DNA of 64,000 nt. It comes from an uncultured Acidobacteriota bacterium (GTDB lineage Bacteria; Acidobacteriota; Vicinamibacteria; Vicinamibacterales; CAVVIG01). The translations under genes were made by a program, and so were the position numbers. Positions 1-60,296 of the stretch are shown in pieces. Positions within the stretch are counted from its first letter, which is position 1. Each line of letters opens with the position of its first letter. Where the stretch lies: positions 37,163 through 101,162 of the forward strand of contig CAVOPD010000019.1 in NCBI GenBank assembly GCA_963697745.1, in the 5' to 3' direction. Under the pieces are notes generated by a model. It ran no database searches. It saw nothing but the letters and a program-made list of their open reading frames with translations, and was not told the origin of the DNA.

Positions 1-2914
1 AGAGTGCTATCGCGGGCATCGTCAGGGATACGTCCGGGGCTGTGCTGCCCGGCGTGACCGTAGAAGCGGCGAGTCCTGCGCTTAATCGAAAAAACCCGGG
101 CGGTCACCACCGATGGAGAAGGCCGCTACAACATCGTCGACCTTCGACCGGGTGTCTACAGCGTCACGTTCTCCCTGGAAGGATTCAGCACCGTCAAGCG
201 CGACGGGATCGAACTGCCCAGCGGGTTCACGGCCACGATCAACGGCGACCTGAAGGTCGGATCACTCGAGGAGACGATCACCGTGTCCGGCCAGTCGCCG
301 GTCGTCGACACCTCCACAGCCGTGCAGCAGCAGGTGCTGAGCCGCGCGGTGCTCGACGCGGTGCCGACCGGCCGCAGCGTGCCCACGCTGGGTGCGATGC
401 TCCCAGGCGCGCGCCTGGCGCTGCCCGACGTCGGCGGCACGTCCGGCATGCAGAACCGCGACCTCACCGTGCACGGATCGGACGGCCGCGACACCACCTT
501 CATGGTGGACGGCATGATCCTGAACGGCATCGAGGGCGACGGCAGCGTGCAGAGCTACTTCAACGACATGATGTTCGAGGAAGTCAGCTACCAGACCAGC
601 GCCATCAACGCCGAAACGTCGGCCGGCGGCGTCCGCGCGAACATGATTCCCAAGGACGGCGGCAACGCGTTCAAGGGCACCGGCTTCTTCTCGGCGCGGC
701 AACGACTCGATGCAGTCCGACAACTCGGCCGATGCGATCGCCAAGGGGCTTGCGGGCGCCGCGACGCGCTGAGCAGGGTGTGGGACGTCAACCTCGCCGA
801 AGGCGGACCGATCAAGAAGGACAAGCTCTGGTTCTTCACGTCGTTCCGCGACTGGGGTGTCGAGCAGTACATCGCGAACAGCTTCTTCCGCTACGGGACC
901 GGAGGCCGGTCAGCAGACGATCGACGATGCCCGCATCACGAGCGCGATGCTGCGTCTGACCACCGCGTCGGCGACAAGCACAAGGTCGCGGGGTATCTGG
1001 ATCGCATCCGCAAGTTCCGCGGACACGAGAACTCGGCGCCGGCCGGCTACGCGATCGCCGGCGAGGCGACCGACATCCGCGCGCCGAAGCAGTACTACAC
1101 GAGCGAGTTCAAGTACACCGGCACGCTCACCAGCAAGTTCCTCATCGAGGGCGGCTTCGCGATCAACAACGAGAGCTACTCGCTGACGCCGCAGGATCCG
1201 GGCACCGTGCCGCCGCTGCCGAGCGGCGGCGGAAGCAACCCGGCGCCGACCAACTCGCTGGTCATTCCCAAGCGCGACACGATTCTGCTGACGGCGTACG
1301 ACCAGTACGACGGCGGCATCTACTACCGCGAGCCGATCCGCAAGACCTTCATGGGCGCGGCCTCGTACGTGACCGGCTCGCACAACATCAAGGTGGGCAT
1401 GCAGTACGGCTACGGGTACTTCTGGCGTCAGCGTCGCGAAGCGGCCGACCTGATTCAGCTCTATCGTTCGGGTGCGCCGTCGCAGGTGATCATCCACAAC
1501 ACGCCGCAGGACTCGCGCACCGACATGAACGCGGACCAGGGCATCTACGCGCAGGACTCGTGGACGGTCGGCCGCTTCACGATCAACCCGGGCATCCGCT
1601 TCGAGCACTTCAACAGCTCCATCGACGAGCGCTCCGCGCTGCCGCGGCCGCTTCGTGCCGTTCCGGACCTTCGCAGCGACGTGAGAACGTGCCGAACTGG
1701 AACGACATCTCGCCGCGCCTCGGCTTCGCGTGGGACGTGCAGGGCAACGGCAAGACCGCGGTGAAGGTGGGCTTTGGCAAGTACATGCGCGCGTACTCGT
1801 CGGGCTTCTCGGATACCTACGATCCGAACTTCTACACGTCGGCGACTCTGACCTGGCCGACCTGAACGGCGACGACATCGCGCAGGGCGGCATCCAGTAC
1901 GCTGCTGACGGCACGCGCGTCCCCTGCACGTTCCGTGCGGCCGGCTGCGAAATCGACTTCTCGAACCTGCCGATCACGTTCGGCGTGAAGCCGCCGCAGA
2001 ACTTCGTGCGAAGACATCAAGCGGCCGTACCAGTACGAGATGAACGCCAGCGTGCAGCGGGAGATCGTTCCCGGCACGTCGGTGACCTTCTCCTACATCC
2101 GCCGCGACTACAAGAACCTGATCTGGGGCGACAACCTCGCCATCGACCCGTCGGATTACACCAGGTACACGGTGACGAATCCGTACGACACCACCAAGAC
2201 CGTGGACATCTACAACCTGAACCCGGCGAAGGCCACCGCGTTCAACGTCCTCGATCAGAACTCGGACCAGAACTCGCGTGTCTACACCGGCTTCGACGTC
2301 AGCTTCCAGACCCGCGCCAAGGGGCTGAACCTGTTCGGCGGCTTCAGCGCCGGCCACCAGATCACCAACACCTGCCAGGTGGAGGATCCGAACTTCCTCA
2401 ACTACTGCGATCAGAACCAGTACGACATCCCGATGTACAACCAGTTCAAGCTGAACGGGTCGTACAACCTGCCGTGGAAGCTCCAGATAGCGGCGTCGGT
2501 GCAGAGCTACAACGGCGACGCGCGCAACGCGACGGTCGACACGCGTCATCGCCGCGACCGACCCGTCGCTGCGCGTGATCTGGAACGTCGACCGTCCCAC
2601 GTTCCTTGCGGCCACGCAAGGCTGCGGGCTACAACAGCGGCGAACGGCGTGAACGCTGACGCAGTCGTCGGTGAACATCCAGTTGATCGAGCCCGGCTCC
2701 AAGCTGCTCGACCGTCAGAACCAGGTGGATTTCCGCCTCAAGCGGCCGTTCAACCTCGGGCGTCTTCAGCTCGAAGGACAGTTCGATGCGTACAACGCCT
2801 TCAACTCGGGCGTCGTGCTCACCACGCGTGCAGACCTTCGGCACCGCACTCGACCGGCCGGCGACGATCCTCCAGGGTCGCCTGATTCGTCTCGGCCTGC
2901 AGGCGCGGTGGTAG
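1..2914 (+). CDS. TonB-dependent receptor-like outer-membrane protein (CarboxypepD_reg-like N-terminal domain, then plug and beta-barrel). The 5' end is off-window and the frame is broken many times
   Basis: Recognisable pieces lie in different frames: SAIAGIVRDTSGAVLPGVTVEA / IEKTRAVTTDGEGRYNIVDLRPGVYSVTFSLEGFSTVKR / ITVSGQSPVVDTSTA / MIPKDGGNAFKGTGFF / KKDKLWFFTSFRDWG / ENVPNWNDISPRLGFAWDVQGNGKTAVK / DAYNAFNSGVVLT / ILQGRLIRLGLQARW-stop (2912-2914, aromatic C-terminus typical of barrels). There are at least 11 frame switches (about 84, 693, 769, 895, 962, 1640, 1683, 1855, 2010, 2540, 2825). Confidence 0.8.
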
Positions 2915-2954
2915 AACGTTAGTCGGTTGAAGTCGTTGCAGTCGACAAGTCGCG

Positions 2955-2999
2955 AGACGAAAAAGGGGCGGACTGGAATTCCAGTTCGCCCCTTCGTCT
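2955..2999. terminator. Long GC-rich hairpin between convergent genes, probably a bidirectional terminator
   Basis: AGACGAAAAAGGGGCGGACTGGAA / TTCCAGTTCGCCCCTTCGTCT are inverted arms with a 2-nt bulge and one mismatch. The centre ACTGGAATTCCAGT is a perfect palindrome. It lies between the receptor stop (2914) and the LytTR stop (3091). Confidence 0.6.
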
Positions 3000-3007
3000 G
3001 TACCGCT

Positions 3008-3092
3008 CCCCGATCCCTGATCCCCGATCCTCCGATCCCCGATCCCTCCGATCCCCGATCCGTCCCGATCCCTGATCCCTGATCCCTGATCT
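3008..3092. repeat. Tandem heptamer array CCC(C/T)GATC, about 11 units with small insertions
   Basis: Direct reading shows cgatccctgatccccgatcctccgatccccgatccctccgatccccgatccgtcccgatccctgatccctgatccctgatc. There are 11 GATC tetramers between 3012 and 3091. The array abuts the stop codon (3091-3093) of the minus-strand response regulator. Confidence 0.9.
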
Positions 3093-3869
3093 AGAGCGGC
3101 TTGCCGAGCCTCGCCTGTATCGCGTCGCGATATCCACGACTCAGCGTGAGCCGCGTCGCATTGCGCAGCAGCACGACGTACTCGCCATTGAACGACGACT
3201 GCATTTCCTGGATGCGATCGACGTTCACGATCGTGGAGCGATGGATGCGCATGAACTGCTGTCCATCGAGCTGCGACTCGAGGTGGCTCATCGTGTCGCG
3301 GATCAGGTATTCCTGCTGCGCGACGTGCATGCGGACGTAGTTGCCGGCGGCCTCGCACCAGTCGATGTCGCCGGTACGGACGAAATGAATCCGCCCGCCT
3401 GACTTCACCATCAGGCGGTTGCGTCGGCCGGCGGCCTGCTGGTCCCGCGCCACGGACTGCGGCGCAGTCGATGCGGCGTCGCCACTCGCCTTCCGCTTGG
3501 CCAGATGTTCGCGGGCGTGTCCGAGCGCCGCGCGGAAGCGATCGGAGCTGAACGGCTTCAGCAGGTAGTCGAGCGCGTGCACCTCGAATGCGCGCAGCGC
3601 GTACTGATCGTAGGCGGTGACGAAGACCACCGCGGGCATCGCCGTTGGCCTGGATGGTGCGCGCGAGGTCGATGCCCGGACATCTCGGGCATCTGGATGT
3701 CCAGGAACAGGAGATCCAGCTGCTCCTGCTCGATGGCAGCGCGGGCTTCTTCGCCGGTCGCGCACTCGCGCACCAGCTCGATGTCTTGCTCGCCGCTCAG
3801 CAGCGAGACGACGCGCGCCCTGGCAATCGGCTCGTCGTCGGCGACCAGTGTCCGGATCTTCTGGTTCAT
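3091..3869 (-). CDS. LytTR-family response regulator (receiver plus LytTR DNA-binding domain), one frameshift
   Basis: The N-terminus MNQKIRTLVADDEPIARARVVSLLSGEQDIELVRECATGEEARAAIEQEQLDLLFLDIQMPEMSG lies in the frame of ORF 3558..4739. The rest, PAVVFVTAYDQYALRAFEVHALDYLLKPFSSDRF...LMVKSGGRIHFVRTGDIDWCEAAGNYVRMHV...RIHRSTIVNVDRIQEM, lies in ORF 3091..3876. The frame switches near 3655. The ATG is at 3869. Confidence 0.85.
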
Positions 3870-4984
3870 GCAGCACCTGCCTTCATCGGTTCGGCCACTG
3901 AGGCCGTCGGCCGTGAACGGGATGGAGATCGTCACGCAGAATCCCTCGTCGTTCGAGAAGACGAACGCGTGATCGGCACGGTAGAGATGTTCGAGCCGGG
4001 CGCGGGTGTTCGTGAGCCCGACACCCTGGTTGAGCAGCGTCAGGTAGTGCGGCGCGACGCCATCGCCGCTGTCGCGGATCCGGATCACCAGACGATTGCC
4101 CTCGCGCCGGGCTTCTATCGCGACCCGGCCCTGGCGCGTGTGGGGAGCGACGCCGTGGCGCACGGCATTTTCGACGAGTGGTTGCAGCAGGAAGTTCGGC
4201 ACCATGGCGGCCAGCGTGTCCGGCTCGATGCGCATCGCCACGCTCAGGCGCCGGCCGAAGCGGACCTGTTCGATGTCCAGGTACTTCTGGAGCATCTCGA
4301 GTTCTTCCTTCAGCGGCAGTTCCTGCACGTTGCCGGACTCGAGCGCCATGCGGAGCAGGTCGCCGAGCCGATCCATCATCCGATCGGCGGCCTCGACATC
4401 GGTGCGCATCAGGCCGGAGATCGCGTTCAGCGTGTTGAACAGGAAATGCGGCTGGAGTTGCCGCTGCAGCGACTGCAACTGGGCCTCGATGAGCCTGGTT
4501 TCCAGATGCGCGCTGTCCAGCGCGCGGCGTTCCGACTCGCGACGGTAGGCGAGCGCGTGAGCCAGACCCACGAGGAACAGGTAGGTCATCAGGATCCAGT
4601 CGAGCTGCGTCAGGTACTCGATTCGCGCCGCGATCCACCAGCCGCGAGGCGGCGGATTCTGCTGCATGAGCAGAATCCGGGTGCCCAGCATCGCGGCCGA
4701 GTGGATGACCGAGTAGGTCAGCGCGCCGGCGATGTGCACGGCGAATGGCCGCCAGCCGTGGCCGCGTGCGAACTGGTACCGGGTGGCGACGCCGCATGAT
4801 GATCGGCGCCATCAGCGCGGGGACGTACCAGTAGACGAGATTCAGGATGACAACGTGAACGCGCCATCCCGCCGACAGGTTCGCCTGCAGCGGCCGACAG
4901 CAGGTACGACTGGATGCTGGAGGAAATGCCGAACGCGGTGGCGATGCCGAGGAGCAGCGGCAGCGACGGTCGACGGGAGGGCAT
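3866..4984 (-). CDS. Membrane sensor histidine kinase of the LytS/YehU type (His_kinase plus HATPase_c), partner of the LytTR regulator, frameshifted
   Basis: LQSLQRQLQPHFLFNTLNAISGLMR (His_kinase H-box) and LLQPLVENAVRHGV...IRIRDSGDGV...GVGLTNTRARLEHLY (ATPase) are present. The N-terminal TM segments are split over three frames (MPSRRPSLPLLLGIATAFGISSSIQSYLL / WRVHVVILNLVYWYVPALMAPIIM / FAVHIAGALTYSVIHSAAML). The 3' end is uncertain. A TGA overlapping the regulator ATG (ATGA, 3866-3869) is in another frame. Confidence 0.8.
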
Positions 4985-5138
4985 GACAGCACTATCAGCG
5001 CCACGGGCGCTGTGGTCAAGGCGCTCGTCCCTGCAGATGCCGCGAAATCGACATTCGTCCCGCGCCAGCCGCAGTTCGTCACCGCAAACGGCTGCGGGGT
5101 CTTCGGCAGACCGTGCAACGTCGCAGAAATCGTCGAAA

Positions 5139-5308: not shown

Positions 5309-8773
<3,465 letters not shown>

Positions 8774-23294: not shown

Positions 23295-23365
23295 GCGACA
23301 GCAGGGCGGGCTGGCGTTTCCAGTGCGCTGCTACTTTGTTGCTTGCGATGGCACAGTGCACTGCT

Positions 23366-23456
23366 GACTTTCGATCTGTGACTTGCGACCTGTGACTTGC
23401 GACCTTGTGACTTCCGACCTGTGAACTTGTGACATCCGATCTGTGACGTCGTGACT
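23366..23456. repeat. Tandem repeat of about 14 bp (consensus GTGACTTGCGACCT, about 6.5 decayed units) immediately upstream of dinB-family gene
   Basis: gactttcgatctgtgacttgcgacctgtgacttgcgaccttgtgacttccgacctgtgaacttgtgacatccgatctgtgacgtcgtgac. It ends 17 nt before the start at 23473. Confidence 0.85.
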
Positions 23457-26775: not shown

Positions 26776-26807
26776 TTAGCGGCGAGGTGCGCTAACAAGT
26801 GCGCTAA

Positions 26808-26888
26808 CACGGAGGACACGGATACGACGGAGGGCACGGTCTTCTGCAGGATTACCGTGTTCTCCGTGTGAACTCCGTGTTCTCCGTG
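26808..26888. repeat. Large imperfect inverted repeat built from ACGGAG(G/A)ACACGG / CCGTGTTCTCCGT units (REP-like hairpin)
   Basis: The left arm is cacggaggacacggatacgacggagggcacgg. The right arm is ccgtgttctccgtgtgaactccgtgttctccgtg, whose reverse complement is cacggagaacacggagttcacacggagaacacgg. A direct repeat gtgcgctaaca x2 precedes it at 26787-26808. Confidence 0.8.
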
Positions 26889-26974
26889 TTGAGGCCGTTC
26901 CAAAGCCCAGCGCCGAACGCCCAATGTCCCGCGCCCATCGCCCGAAGCTCGAAGCCCGAAGTCCTCTTCGCCAC

Positions 26975-27807: not shown

Positions 27808-27831
27808 GCATCGCCCATCGCCCATCGCCCA
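27808..27831. repeat. Heptamer CCCATCG x3, the same unit as the array at 57995-58080
   Basis: gcatcgcccatcgcccatcgccca on direct reading. The string cgcccatcgcccatcgcc recurs at about 58033-58049. Confidence 0.8.
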
Positions 27832-27863
27832 GCGCTCGACAGGCCTCAGTGCCTGGCCCGTCG

Positions 27864-56977: not shown

Positions 56978-57886
56978 TCACTGCTGCACGTGCTTGATGA
57001 ACGTGCCGGCGCGCAGTTCCGAAATCGCGCGCTGCAGTTCCTGCTGCGTGTTCATCACGATCGGGCCGTACCACGCCACCGGCTCTTCGAGCGGCCGACC
57101 GGACACCAGCAGGAATCGGATCCCATCGTCGCCAGCCTGCACGACGATCTCGTCGCCGCGATCGAACAGCACGAGCGAGTGGTTGTGGGCGTCGTAGCGC
57201 ACGTCGTCGCTGCCATCGGTCGCCTCGGTCCGGACCGCCTTCGGATCCGACGCGTCGCGAAACGTCCCCGACCCCGCGAACACGTAGGCAAAGGCATGAC
57301 GTGTGACTTCGACGATGATGCGGCGGCGCTTGCCGGGAGGAACGGAGATATCGAGGTAGCGCGGATCGGCGGCCACCCCTTCCACGGGCCCCTTCTGCCC
57401 CCAGAACTCACCGCAGATCACCCGCGCGCTGGTCCCGTCGTCTTCAGTGACCGTGGGGATGTCTTTGCCGGCGATGTCCTGATAGCGCGGATGCGTCATC
57501 TTGAGTGACGCCGGCAGGTTCGCCCAGAGCTGAAAGCCGTGCATGCGGCCGTTCGCGTCACCCTTCGGCATTTCCTGGTGCATGATGCCGCTGCCCGCGG
57601 TCATCCACTGGACGTCGCCGGCGCCGAGATTGCCGCGGTTGCCGAGGCTGTCGCCGTGTTCGACGGTACCGGCGAGCACGTAGGTGATTGTCTCGATGCC
57701 GCGGTGCGGATGCCACGGGAACCCGGCCTGATAGTCCGCCGGGCGCTCGTTGCGGAAGTCGTCGAACAGCAGGAAGGGGTCGAACTCGCTGGTTTCACCG
57801 AAGCCGAAGCCGCGCTTCAGTTTCACGCCCGCGCCTTCGAGTGTCGGTCGCGCTTCGATGATCTGCTTCACAGGGCGGATGGACAT
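56978..57886 (-). CDS. Pirin-family (bicupin) protein, intact
   Basis: MSIRPVKQIIEARPTLEGAGVKLKRGFGFGETSEFDPFLLFDDFRNERPADYQAGFPWHPHRGIETITYVLAGTVEHGDSLGNRGNLGAGDVQWMTAGSGIMHQEMP. Confidence 0.9.
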   Translation of the reverse strand: MSIRPVKQIIEARPTLEGAGVKLKRGFGFGETSEFDPFLLFDDFRNERPADYQAGFPWHPHRGIETITYVLAGTVEHGDSLGNRGNLGAGDVQWMTAGSGIMHQEMPKGDANGRMHGFQLWANLPASLKMTHPRYQDIAGKDIPTVTEDDGTSARVICGEFWGQKGPVEGVAADPRYLDISVPPGKRRRIIVEVTRHAFAYVFAGSGTFRDASDPKAVRTEATDGSDDVRYDAHNHSLVLFDRGDEIVVQAGDDGIRFLLVSGRPLEEPVAWYGPIVMNTQQELQRAISELRAGTFIKHVQQ

Positions 57887-57887
57887 A

Positions 57888-57905
57888 GGCAATTCTAGAA
57901 TTGCC
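57888..57905 (-). promoter_or_regulatory. Perfect 18-bp palindrome GGCAATTCTAGAATTGCC, 1 nt upstream of the pirin ATG. It is a candidate operator or 5'-UTR hairpin
   Basis: The sequence is self-complementary on direct reading. It sits in an AT-rich island (57887-57945) with further GCAAT/ATTGC copies (gccaattcgctaattgctaatggctgattgcgattgc). Confidence 0.5.
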
Positions 57906-57994
57906 AATTCGCTAATTGCTAATGGCTGATTGCGATTGCTGGTGGCCGATCGAGGCAAAGCTCAACCAGCGGTTCCGGGCGGCGAGGGACCAGT

Positions 57995-58080
57995 CGATGT
58001 CCATCGCCACCCGGCTATCGCGATCGCCTACCGCCCATCGCCCATCGCCTTATCGCGTCCATCGCCATCGCGCCATCCCA
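57995..58080. repeat. Degenerate tandem heptamer array, unit CCATCGC / CCCATCG
   Basis: cgatgtccatcgccacccggctatcgcgatcgcctaccgcccatcgcccatcgccttatcgcgtccatcgccatcgcgccatccc. Confidence 0.8.
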
Positions 58081-58103
58081 CGCGCCTGAGCACACTGTCT
58101 GTT

Positions 58104-58133
58104 CCCCGATCCCCGATCCCCGATCCCTGATCC
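58104..58133. repeat. Second copy of the CCC(C/T)GATC heptamer array (4 units)
   Basis: ccccgatccccgatccccgatccctgatcc, the same unit as 3008-3092. Confidence 0.85.
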
Positions 58134-58140
58134 GTGTCGC

Positions 58141-59906
58141 CTATCGCCGAGCAGGCGGCGGTGGCGGAGGAGGAGGTGGCGGGGGCGGCGGCGAGCCGGC
58201 CATCGAACTGCAGCTGCGCAGTTCCATTCGCTTCGAACGCAGCCGTGACCGTCATCTCCACTTCAATGGGAACGCAGTTGAGAAGCGTCTGGCGTGAAGC
58301 GCCACTGCCGCACGGCCTCCTGTGCCGCGTCGGCGAACTCGGGGTTGGTTGCGGTTATCGTCCGCACCTCCGGACGGTGCCGTCGGTCCCGATGAGGGCC
58401 TGCAGCACCACGCGGCCGCCGACCCCTGAGCCCTGCAGTGAGGCCGGATAGCGTGGCCTTCATGTCCGCGATCTTCTTCGGCGGCATGATCCGTCCGCTG
58501 TTCGGCTCGGCGGTGCAGGCGGGCGCCGACGTCGAGCCTGCCGCCGTACCTGCGCGCCGGGAAGCCGTGTCGCCGGCCGGCCCGTCGACGATCCTGATCG
58601 TTTCCTGCAGCGTGCCCACCTGCAGCGTCATCTCCGGCGCAGCGTCTGACCGCCCGCGGAGTTGCAGGGTGTCTTCGATGTTCTGGAATCCGATGCCACC
58701 AACGACCAGGCTGTAGTTCCCCGGCACGAGCCCGAGCAACTCGAAGGCGCCGCGCTCGTTGGTCCGCACTTCGTGCTTTGCGCCACTCGCGGACATGCGT
58801 CACGGTGATGCCGATGTTCGGAATGGTGCCGCCCAGCTGATCGTGGACGGTGCCGGCGAAGGTTGCGAACGGCGACTGCGCCGCGACGACTCGCCACCGA
58901 GGCAGTGAGCGCAAGACCCGCGACAACCACCGAGTATCGTGCGAGCCGCGTGACGGGAGTGACGGGCGACGTGTGAATCGAGCATGGCGCTGACTCTCCT
59001 TTCAAGACTCGACGTGCGGGCCATGGCGGGCGCTGGAACCCACGCGCGTGGGCTGGCGAGCATGCGGGCGAGGTCGACGAGGTGTTCCGCGTAGTCCGGC
59101 GCCTGCACGCCGCGCTCGAGCACGGCATCGTCGCAGGCGTGTTCGCTTTCGAGGCGCAGTCGAGCGGCGGCCATCCAGGCGAGCGGGTTGAACCACGACA
59201 GCGTGCGCAGCGCTTCGCCGGCCAACTGCAGCAGCCAGTCGTTGCGCCGGATGTGTTCAGCCTCGTGTTCGAGGACGACCCGCACACGCGCCGGATGCCA
59301 CGCCTGGGCGCCGCGCGGCAACAGGATCCGAGGCCGCCGCGTCCCCCAGGTCACGAGCATGGACGGGTGGTCGCTCTGGAGGAGTCTGACGGCTTCGAGC
59401 CGCACGTCGTGCGATGCCAGTTCGTTGAGACACTCAGCCCACGGCCCGTCGAGTAAGGACCATGGCGCGGCGCGACCAGGATGCGTCAGCCGCACAGCCC
59501 GGTGATCAGCGTCAGACGCACCGGCGATGACACCTGCAATCCAGACCCACGACGATCACGGCGGCTGCGCTCCAGGCCGCGTCTGGTGAGTCGGACCCGC
59601 CTGACGGCACGGTGGTGTGTCGTTCCCCCGCCGGGGCGGGACGACGGATCTGCCCGACGGCTGCGGGTGCGAGCCCGCGTACCGCCTCCACCGGAGCCGT
59701 CGTTGCGCACACGCGACGGGAACTGCACGTGCCATGCTGGCAGCGCGAGTCCGAGCAGCGGGGCTGCCAGTGCTCCGCAGATCGCCGGTCGCCAGGACGC
59801 AGCGGCGAAGCGCGGCGGAATGGCGGCGGAGGAGACGTGTGGCGAACAGTGTGAGGGCCAGCAGCACGGAGACGCGCACTGTGAGTGTGGCGAGGAGCGT
59901 GAGCAT
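58141..59906 (-). CDS. BlaR1-like M56 metallopeptidase signal transducer fused to a CarboxypepD_reg-like domain and a TonB C-terminal domain, many frameshifts
   Basis: MLTLLATLTVRVSVLLALTLFATRLLRRHSAALRR (TM) / PSMLVTWGTRRPRILLPRGAQAWHPARVRVVLEHEAEHIRRNDWLLQLAGEALRTLSWFNPLAWMAAARLRLESEHACDDAVL (M56 HExxH) / FAGTVHDQLGGTIPNIGITVTH..ASGAKHEVRTNERGAFELLGLVPGNYSLVV (CarboxypepD_reg) / PRYPASLQGSGVGGRVVLQALIGTDGTV..ATNPEFADAAQEAVRQWRFTP.LLNCVPIEVEMTVTAAF (TonB_C). The 3' end is uncertain (58028-58141). One frame there encodes 13 consecutive Pro. Confidence 0.8.
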
Positions 59907-60296
59907 CACTTCGTACCGTCCTTTCGCGCCCGTCGAATGAGCGCCGCAATCCGCTCGAGTTCGGCGTCGCTGAGGCGTGCCGCCTCGCCGCCGAGCAGGG
60001 CGCTGACGACCTTTTCCGTCGACCCGTCGAAAAAGGTGTCGACCAGGTGGCGCAGCGCCGAGCGGCGGGCCGAATGCCGCGGCACGGCCGCGGTGTAGAC
60101 GTAGCGCAGCCCTTCCTGCTCGTGGCGGACGTGCCCCTTGCCTTCGAGAATCCTGAGCTGGGTCCGCACCGTGGAGTAGCTGGGATCGCCGGGCAGTTCC
60201 GCCATCACCTCGGCAGCGGTGGCGCGCCCGCGGCGGTAGAGGATGTCCATGATCTGGCGTTCGCGTCTGGAGAGGGCAGGGTGAGGAGCAGGTCAT
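59906..60296 (-). CDS. BlaI/MecI/CopY-family winged-helix repressor. The ORF is intact from 60250, and the probable true start at 60296 needs one frame correction
   Basis: (..ALSRRERQI)MDILYRRGRATAAEVMAELPGDPSYSTVRTQLRILEGKGHVRHEQEGLRYVYTAAVPRHSARRSALRHLVDTFFDGSTEKVVSALL. Its stop overlaps the blaR1-like ATG (TGATG at 59906). Confidence 0.85.

Follow-up and report, generated by a model that had tools for sequence, protein, structure and literature searches.

Tandem arrays of G-rich heptamers "of the type GGGNATC" were described by Rehm et al. (2015), with GGGAATC as the unit in Xanthomonas and GGGGAYT as the unit in Nostoc PCC 7120 (PMC4692102). These arrays comprise 2 to 26 units, are 89–93% intergenic in two xanthomonads and lie near stop codons, often within 50 nt, with the G-rich strand as the coding strand; convergent inverted pairs are frequent (PMC4692102). 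They are mostly transcribed, and in vitro they form G-quadruplexes (G4s) and i-motifs; close relatives differ in them, and no function has been demonstrated (PMC4692102). As cited in PMC4679880 and PMC4692102, Mrazek (2007) found heptanucleotides to be the commonest class of long simple sequence repeat (SSR) in most genomes; polymerase slippage was the proposed origin, and 7 nt may match the segment of DNA held by the polymerase, a length at which slippage would be favoured. The classic case of several heptamer units is that of the cyanobacterial STRRs (Mazel et al. 1990, as cited in PMC4692102), while MacGregor (2015) described intergenic TAACTGA heptamers in Beggiatoaceae, cyanobacteria and Bacteroidetes (PMC4679880). 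Our literature search found nothing on heptamer repeats in Acidobacteria/Vicinamibacterales or on (GGGGATC)n.

Two arrays of a GATC-containing heptamer were present in the 64-kb stretch of DNA analysed here (the window). The longer of these, array 1 (3003–3091, minus strand), was delimited with Tandem Repeats Finder, GATC mapping and G4 scoring. When run on the 64-kb window, Tandem Repeats Finder gave a period of 7, 11.9 copies and 81% matches for this array, i.e. ~12 heptamer units. These read CCYGATC on the plus strand and GATCRGG on the minus strand, so that the coding strand of the adjoining gene is the G-rich one (GGGGATC/AGGGATC). Array 1 holds 11 GATC tetramers (3012, 3019, 3026, 3034, 3041, 3050, 3057, 3067, 3074, 3081 and 3088) and 10 tracts of three or more Gs. 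The 100-nt GATC density of the 64 kb peaks at this array; the region that comes second, elsewhere in the window, has 6 sites. A sequence-only reading of this DNA had described an array of about 85 bp of CCC(C/T)GATC units with 11 GATC sites; the array and the count of 11 were reproduced, with the correction that the unit is 7 nt (CCYGATC) and not 8. A search with the four-GATC pattern GATCCCYGATCCCYGATCCCYGATC, in which as many as 2 mismatches were tolerated, gave 4 matches in the window, all confined to the two arrays, compared with 0.00 in a chance control of 100 dinucleotide-preserving shuffles of the window. Array 1 is thus a real, non-chance heptanucleotide tandem repeat.

The GATC-delimited units of array 1 are not all of one length: eight of them measure 7 nt, whereas the other three have lengths of 8, 9 and 10 nt (CTCCGATC, CCTCCGATC, CGTCCCGATC). 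Many ORFs in the 64-kb window are split by frameshifts, and a comparison with L201, a relative with 96.9% DNA identity whose genes are intact, showed 6 single-base indels in ~2 kb of coding sequence (~3 per kb); the window looks like the product of an error-prone long-read assembly. Because there are so many single-base indels relative to L201, the irregular 8–10-nt units could in part be assembly errors. The same indels and frameshifted ORFs might be taken to mean that the array as a whole is an artefact of error-prone long-read sequencing or assembly. However, L201 is an independent JGI metagenome contig that carries this array in the same position, and the unit recurs at 120 or more sites in unrelated assemblies. 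As an explanation for the existence of the array, the artefact is essentially refuted, and we give it a negligible probability; doubt attaches only to the irregular units.

Array 1 lies at the end of a frameshifted gene for a LytTR-family response regulator (3091–3876, minus strand; taken from the ORF list, with 3876 being the mechanical limit of the ORF and not the true start), orthologues of which (P0001 and others) carry PF00072 and PF04397. The array abuts the LytTR stop codon, as had been reported: TAG at 3091–3093 (minus) has one base in common with the first repeat unit, its G being also that of the first GATC. Along the minus strand, the stop codon is followed by (GATCRGG) x ~12, a short linker, a hairpin, a second short-period array (array B) and the stop codon of a convergent receptor gene. 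The hairpin (2958–3000) was recovered by inverted-repeat search and folding and, with an A-run on one side, resembles a bidirectional intrinsic terminator. Its stem occupies 2963–2994, with arms at 2963–2978 and 2979–2994 (16 nt each, 94% complementary), in agreement with the strong hairpin seen earlier beside the array, and is followed on the minus strand by TTTTTCGTC (also given as UUUUUCGUC). A simple terminator scan of 2700–3300 made no call, although folding and the inverted-repeat search both show the hairpin with its 16-nt arms. Arrays 1 and 2 do not themselves contain a strong hairpin, and the only one nearby is this separate terminator at 2963–2994.

Between the terminator hairpin and the stop codon of the convergent gene is array B (2921–2944), a short-period (8–9 nt) array reading CGACTNNNN on the minus strand (Tandem Repeats Finder, period 9, 2.6 copies). 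The convergent gene itself (283–2914, plus strand, frameshifted) is TonB-dependent-receptor-like, as judged by a match to OMP_b-brl_4, a Plug match just under the Pfam cutoff and synteny with L121, L204 and L205. By orthology it ends in ...RW-TAG, with the stop codon at 2912–2914 (plus). Since array 1 is flanked by a stop codon on one side and a terminator hairpin on the other, it can be placed in the 3'UTR of the LytTR gene, where it is probably transcribed as a G-rich segment.

The second, shorter array that had been noticed in the window was also recovered. Array 2 (58103–58133, minus strand) has 4.4 units, reading (GGATCRG)4 on the minus strand with 95% matches (Tandem Repeats Finder), and contains exactly four tracts of three or more Gs. 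It had been assigned to the 3' end of a BlaR1-TonB gene. In Pfam searches, the protein, here called BlaR1-like, matched Peptidase_M56, with CarboxypepD_reg just below threshold; a TonB domain was not confirmed. The ORF appears to stop at 58263, probably as an artefact of a frameshift near 58262. A TAG at 58139–58141 (minus), following a poly-proline tail, probably marks the true end of the gene; although the gene is frameshifted in the window, translation in this frame matches the Pro-rich end of its intact counterpart in the syntenic region of L210, which is why the stop is placed here. Array 2 would then start ~6 nt past the probable BlaR1-like stop, with the G-rich strand again being the coding strand. 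Both arrays therefore begin at or shortly past stop codons, one established and one probable, in keeping with their earlier description as non-coding elements at gene 3' ends.

On its other side, array 2 lies ~220 nt upstream of the start of a pirin gene (ATG at 57884–57886, minus; identity from a Pfam search). In this spacer, Tandem Repeats Finder detected two more arrays, both with unrelated units: ~10 degenerate units of CCATCGC (GCGATGG on the minus strand) at 58001–58086, and 4.9 units of AATTGCT at 57899–57933, just upstream of the pirin start. The syntenic relative L210 has none of the GATC, CCATCGC and AATTGCT arrays in its BlaR1-like/pirin spacer. Further heptamer or near-heptamer arrays with unrelated units were found in the window at 23365–23455, 26940–26961 and 27809–27835. 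An ungapped lag-7 autocorrelation picked out 3 regions only in the window, being too strict for arrays that bear indels.

When set beside the described systems, the two arrays largely match the GGGNATC/heptanucleotide SSR class by sequence; the host phylum, the GATC in the unit and the AGGGATC variant differ. The shared features are a 7-nt tandem unit with a G3–4 tract followed by ATC (GGGGATC fits the consensus with N=G), an intergenic and stop-proximal position with a G-rich coding strand (arrays 1 and 2), a range from 2 to >20 units, convergent inverted pairs (in L005, L097 and L098), a length and sequence that differ between close relatives, and a capacity to form G4s as judged by sequence. 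The host of the present arrays is a soil acidobacterium, probably one of the Vicinamibacterales, and the unit also occurs in Chloroflexota, Planctomycetota and others. In addition, the unit contains a GATC palindrome, and among the arrays found, in a search that required at least 3 units, there was no peak at four units. The AGGGATC (=GGGATCA) variant keeps the G3 tract and the ATC, shifted by one base, and so falls outside GGGNATC. As with the cyanobacterial STRRs and other long SSRs, a single genome carries several heptamer units side by side in its non-coding DNA, with a lineage-specific distribution and slippage as the proposed origin, although the units and the phylum are other ones. The resemblance to the TAACTGA repeats is that one unit occupies many intergenic sites in distant phyla with no evident mechanism of transfer; those repeats lie mostly just upstream of start codons, where translational regulation has been proposed (PMC4679880), whereas the present arrays lie just past stops.

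Other comparisons were less close. CRISPR repeats are ~23–47 nt long and separated by unique spacers of comparable length; arrays 1 and 2 have a period of 7 nt and no spacers, which bears out the earlier view that they are not CRISPR. A REP-like, mRNA-stabilising role had also been proposed. REPs are imperfect palindromes mobilised by RAYT transposases. Like REP/BIME elements, the present arrays are dispersed, extragenic and located in 3'UTRs before or near terminators, and a possible effect on mRNA stability is an idea common to both. The analogy holds for position only: arrays 1 and 2 are direct repeats in place of the ~20–40-nt imperfect palindromes with a stem-loop expected of REPs, their palindrome is limited to GATC and no link to RAYT was seen, though inverted pairs of arrays elsewhere do fold. 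Contingency SSRs sit inside ORFs or between promoter elements. The arrays share with them slippage-prone tandem repetition and a strain-dependent unit number, but array 1 is preceded by a stop codon and followed by a terminator, so that a change in unit number cannot switch a reading frame or promoter spacing; for this array, the proposed role in phase-variable spacing does not fit. Rfam returned no family match across the whole 64-kb window.

To survey the unit more widely, one genome per species was scanned with the four-GATC pattern, which identified at least 120 sites. Of the 120 matches listed, 58 were in Acidobacteriota, many of them Vicinamibacterales and Acidobacteriaceae, and the other hosts included Chloroflexota, Planctomycetota, Cyanobacteria and Bacteroidota; among these matches was the heterocystous cyanobacterium Westiellopsis, in which the unit was found at L013, L045, L051 and L102. 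Copies can also be multiple within a genome, with 2 arrays in the 64 kb of the window and up to at least 5 loci in the genomes of single relatives (among the matches listed). These results extend the little-studied heptamer repeats of cyanobacteria and Xanthomonas to abundant soil Acidobacteriota.

The survey further showed that the phenomenon is one of heptamer arrays generally and is not specific to GATC. Across the window and the 120 matches listed, tandem repeats of at least 3 copies numbered 216 for period 7, compared with 26–29 each for periods 6, 8 and 9, and in 109 of the 216 heptamer arrays the unit was unrelated to the query. Such non-query arrays occurred at ~10 per 100 kb in Acidobacteriota loci and at 22–28 per 100 kb in Chloroflexota, Planctomycetota and Cyanobacteria loci (among the matches listed), versus 3 heptamer arrays in 343 kb (~0.9 per 100 kb) of control loci that had been chosen by a protein. 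Using a crude gene map, ~70% of the arrays among the matches listed were intergenic, compared with ~77% of the DNA being coding. The intergenic DNA of the genome studied here is unusually rich in 7-nt tandem arrays, and in its lineage such arrays take up a large part of the non-coding DNA next to terminators. The region downstream of argG holds a 20-mer x2 in the window, an inverted pair of GATC heptamer arrays in L005 and a 15-mer x4.6 in L107.

Two attributes that the different units might have had in common were considered and discarded. A GAT/ATC core serving as a shared binding site was rejected, as 27 units contained ATC and shuffling of the units led to an expectation of 21.2. The other attribute, the provision of stops in every reading frame, holds for GGGATAA, GAGTGCT and, read on the opposite strand, CCTGATC; AATCGCS, TGCGTTTT and CATCGCC lack it.

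The orthologues of the LytTR gene, obtained by a protein search with a 181-residue C-terminal query and ranging from 98% down to 86% identity (some of them named Vicinamibacterales), provided a series in which the contents of the space between the LytTR stop and the terminator (slot A) could be compared. Short-period repetition was present in slot A in all seven further distinct orthologous loci examined, with differing units. Compared with GATCRGG x ~12 in the window, which served as the reference, the unit was GATCAGG x at least 9 in L201 (98%; the contig ends inside the array), GGGAYAA x 5.7 in L202 (91%), TGCGTTTT x ~6 in L203 (90%), AATCGCS x 4.3 in L209 (88%), ATTKYGG x ~4 in L121 (87%), GAGTGCT x 3.3 in L204 (87%) and a degenerate ATTGCYM in L205–L208 (86%; one sequence). 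The flanking genes of the window and L201 share 96.9% DNA identity; here the position and type of array are alike while unit number and composition differ, as would be expected of the slippage-prone repeat that the sequence-only reading had supposed. That reading had reserved the interpretation of neutral microsatellites for arrays unique to the two sites and free of length variation and of a methylation signal; instead, the unit is present at no fewer than 120 sites and its number differs in L201.

In L202 and L203 the downstream gene is not the convergent receptor, and in the five loci that retain the receptor gene the terminator hairpin is kept; its counterpart in L121, L204, L205 and L209 is likewise of the A-tract/GC-stem/T-tract form, although the sequence of the stem is another one. 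The order in this convergent architecture is LytTR stop, array A, A-tract/GC-stem/T-tract hairpin, array B (except in L204) and receptor stop. The position of array B (slot B) is occupied in 4 of the 5 distinct loci with this architecture, the exception being L204, and its units again differ: (CGACTWG) x4.9 in L209, (TTCTAAC) x4.4 in L121 and (CAGATCT) x4 in L205. Distances from stop codon to hairpin range from ~45 to ~100 nt across the loci, and array lengths also vary widely. Judged from these sequences, the presence of an array in slot A persists while its unit, GATC sites and G4 potential turn over; the regions downstream of argG and between the BlaR1-like and pirin genes likewise show turnover.

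This turnover bears directly on the proposal that the GATC sites have a role of their own. According to this proposal, the arrays would be hot spots for GATC methylation or restriction, either as Dam-type 6mA sites for protein binding or an epigenetic switch, or as a restriction decoy or target. The 11 GATC sites within 80 nt of array 1 are consistent with such a role, as are the retention of GATC in both the CCCGATC and CCTGATC variants and its retention in L201. Some of the phyla in which the unit occurs, cyanobacteria being an example, are moreover known to methylate GATC. However, of the eight loci compared, GATC-containing units fill slot A only in the window and L201. At 91% identity and below they are absent from L202, L203, L209, L121 and L205, and L204 has just two isolated GATC-bearing units, so that the conservation of GATC sites among relatives expected of a Dam/SeqA-type cluster was not found at this locus. 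The methylation reading is disfavoured because slot A does not keep GATC-containing units. A 7-bp spacing also sets neighbouring GATC sites ~240 degrees apart on the helix, unlike the phased sites of the SeqA type. Within the 64-kb window, GATC shows an observed/expected ratio of 0.91, i.e. neither avoidance nor enrichment, and no DPPY/NPPY adenine-methyltransferase motif was found in the long ORFs. Lastly, co-resident heptamer arrays have unrelated units, and the sister families GGGAATC (Xanthomonas) and GGGGAYT (Nostoc) lack GATC (PMC4692102). Taken together, these data make a GATC-dependent role very unlikely. The high GATC density of array 1 follows arithmetically from its unit, GGGGATC/AGGGATC, and the GATC richness seems to be a side effect of the unit's sequence rather than a methylation device. 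In these genomes, GATC density alone is thus a poor signal of methylation, being here the by-product of a microsatellite unit. Self-folding through the GATC palindromes was also considered and set aside; it gives weak 4-bp helices, and most of the modest z-scores obtained (-2.5 and -2.2) is due to the terminator hairpin.

The G-rich strand offers a different possibility, namely that G4s or i-motifs, formed in RNA or in non-template DNA, act on the transcripts of the LytTR and BlaR1-like genes, altering the processing of their 3' ends, their resistance to exonucleases or the efficiency with which they are terminated. Arrays 1 and 2 account for 2 of the 4 canonical G4 motifs in the 64-kb window (3037–3086 on the minus strand, and 58104–58127), with G4Hunter scores of 1.43 and 1.84, and in ViennaRNA predictions with G-quadruplex energies the minimum-energy folds of arrays 1 and 2 each contain a G4; array 2 has four G-tracts and no more. 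At array edges, the C/G tract outlasts GATC, the CCY positions matching in 64–88% of cases and the G and A of GATC in 34–38%. L201 and L202 retain G-tracts in slot A, and related repeats are transcribed and form G4s in vitro (PMC4692102). Among the matches listed, query-unit arrays adjacent to stop codons had the G-rich strand as the coding strand in 23 cases versus 10 (p=0.035), a count corrected for ORFs that end inside C-rich arrays. Because the G-rich strand favours the coding strand near stops, with both arrays of the window conforming, this orientation suggests either selection or a mutational bias linked to transcription. Against a G4 function, the orientation bias disappears beyond ~50 nt from the stop codon (among the matches listed). 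The slot units of the 86–90% orthologues (TGCGTTTT, AATCGCS, ATTKYGG and GAGTGCT) are unable to form G4s, and most other heptamer arrays lack a G3 tract: units containing G3/C3 were found in 31 of 109 non-query arrays among the matches listed, versus 20.5 expected. Rehm et al. likewise saw no regulatory role (PMC4692102). A functional G4 or i-motif is hence a possibility that we regard as unlikely. The opposite strand was considered as a C-rich Rho-loading (rut) site acting on read-through from the convergent gene, and this was rejected, since orientation is unbiased overall (27:21 among the matches listed) and the bias near stops is in the opposite direction.

Our preferred explanation, held with moderate confidence, is that the arrays are slippage-driven, hypervariable heptanucleotide microsatellites in a tolerated 3'UTR slot, with their GATC density being incidental. 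Strand slippage during replication would generate, expand, contract and homogenise the arrays, and would favour 7-nt units in some lineages. Arrays would survive only where they are harmless, which under near-neutrality would mean mainly between stop codon and terminator or between terminator and next gene; slot A would in this way hold an array of one kind or another at any time, even as unit, GATC sites and G4 potential are replaced. The slippage reading is supported by the excess of period 7 (216 versus 26–29) and the 109 arrays with unrelated units in the window and the 120 matches listed, by the unrelated arrays co-resident in the window and the density of ~10 per 100 kb in the Acidobacteriota loci among the matches listed, versus ~0.9 in control loci, and by the intergenic skew, the unit turnover in slot A and the comparisons downstream of argG and with L210. 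Any present-day effect on expression is most likely small, structural (as a spacer or a possible G4/i-motif) and independent of methylation. One observation, the presence of the query unit at many independent sites in several phyla, is not obviously predicted by purely random slippage.

Since every orthologue has repetition in slot A, the presence of an array could be under selection, or a high birth rate could saturate the slot. Under selection, stop-to-terminator slots would be maintained as a sequence-independent module requiring some periodic array whose unit is free to drift; such a module might act as a spacer between ribosome and hairpin, insulate convergent genes or be bound by a lineage-specific protein that recognises the 7-nt period. 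The occupation of slot A in every orthologue examined and of slot B in 4 of 5 convergent loci (not L204), flanking a conserved bidirectional terminator, would fit this idea, given a chance rate in control loci of just ~1 heptamer array per 100 kb. So too would the hairpins made by inverted array pairs, which resemble terminators: that of L005 has a folding energy of -68.6 kcal/mol (z = -4.7), others occur in L097 and L098, and a hairpin at 26806–26890 of the window is built of two opposed short-period arrays. Nevertheless, a high birth rate with homogenisation by slippage gives the same picture in the absence of selection, array lengths and stop-to-hairpin distances (~45 to ~100 nt) vary widely, L210 is without most of the arrays at the second locus and, to our knowledge, no candidate protein that binds heptamer arrays has been described. 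We consider such a module improbable. A broader version, in which an active, lineage-restricted process or selection fills stop-to-terminator slots with 7-nt periodic DNA in Acidobacteriota, Cyanobacteria, Chloroflexota and Planctomycetota, is speculative and also seems to us improbable, if anything a little more so. It would explain why arrays are kept on both sides of a conserved terminator despite the turnover of units, as well as the recurrence of the unit across phyla and the orientation bias next to stop codons.

Whichever process has filled them, the slots form a natural series, with a single gene pair, a single conserved terminator and no fewer than 7 different slot units, by which the birth, homogenisation and turnover of microsatellites can be measured. 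The same series is suited to testing whether G-rich 3'UTR arrays act at all. Heptamer arrays also break short-read assemblies, as evidenced by several contigs that end inside an array, and they could serve as strain markers.

Several short-read contigs were found to start or end in a GATC heptamer array, a 7-nt tandem repeat (CCYGATC/GATCRGG) of the kind that follows the LytTR stop codon in the window. Such an array occupied a contig end in six of the fetched loci: L201 (2031-2096), a metagenome contig carrying the same LytTR locus, L018 (1-25), L019 (6-30), L047 (4-28), L071 (2-110) and L006 (2725-2777). These arrays therefore break assemblies, and short-read MAGs probably under-count them as a result.

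Single-base indels break many of the window's genes, including the histidine-kinase and LytTR genes (3558-5002), a TonB-dependent-receptor-like gene (283-2914) and an argG-like gene (5764-6822), both split across frames, and the BlaR1-like gene, with a frame split at ~58262. Compared with L201, a contig that is 96.9% identical and has intact genes, the window showed six single-base indels in ~2 kb. Judging from its many indel-broken genes, the window sequence looks like an uncorrected long-read consensus.

In the spacer 3' of argG, three relatives each carried their own tandem repeat: two copies of a 20-mer in the window (5943-5980), two GATC heptamer arrays in inverted orientation in L005 (925-1015) and 4.6 copies of a 15-mer in L107 (~4560-4630). 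The same design as the L005 inverted pair was seen at window 26806-26890, where two opposed short-period arrays, of ACACGGAGG and CCGTGTTCT type, make up a long hairpin with 17-nt arms that are 94% complementary. Six more stretches of the window carried short-period arrays, mostly 7-nt, with units unrelated to the GATC heptamer, and all apparently non-coding: CTGTGAC/TTGCGAC (23365-23455), GCCCGAA (26900-26961), CATCGCC (27809-27835), AATTGCT (57899-57933), CCATCGC (58001-58086) and CGACTNNNN (array B, 2921-2944). Terminator-like hairpins often adjoin these unrelated-unit arrays. An 18-nt tandem repeat, GCGGGGCTGGTCAAACGT (x3.7, 91% matches; 8487-8552), has a period divisible by three and may therefore be coding.

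Upstream of the histidine-kinase/LytTR operon, direct repeats GTGACGAAC and GGGACGAA, separated by ~11-13 nt, were conserved in all orthologues and were followed by a promoter-like pair, TTGACC ... GATAGT (window ~5000-5090, minus strand; orthologous loci L121 100-140, L205 ~290-360 and L209 ~300-370). These repeats are probably a LytTR autoregulatory box.

At window 58139-60250, a BlaI/BlaR1-like pair lies between HAD-type hydrolase and pirin genes. Pirin is likewise directly 3' of BlaI/BlaR1-like in L210, a syntenic relative, and the Vicinamibacterales MAG GCA_050249955.1 (L212 1243-2001) is without the pair, its hydrolase-pirin gap being 62 nt. This gene order indicates that the whole module is inserted or deleted between the two genes.

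Across the whole window, CTAG was strongly depleted (ratio 0.21, with 12 sites observed and 58.5 expected). The remaining palindromic tetramers, GATC among them, mostly occurred at about their expected counts.
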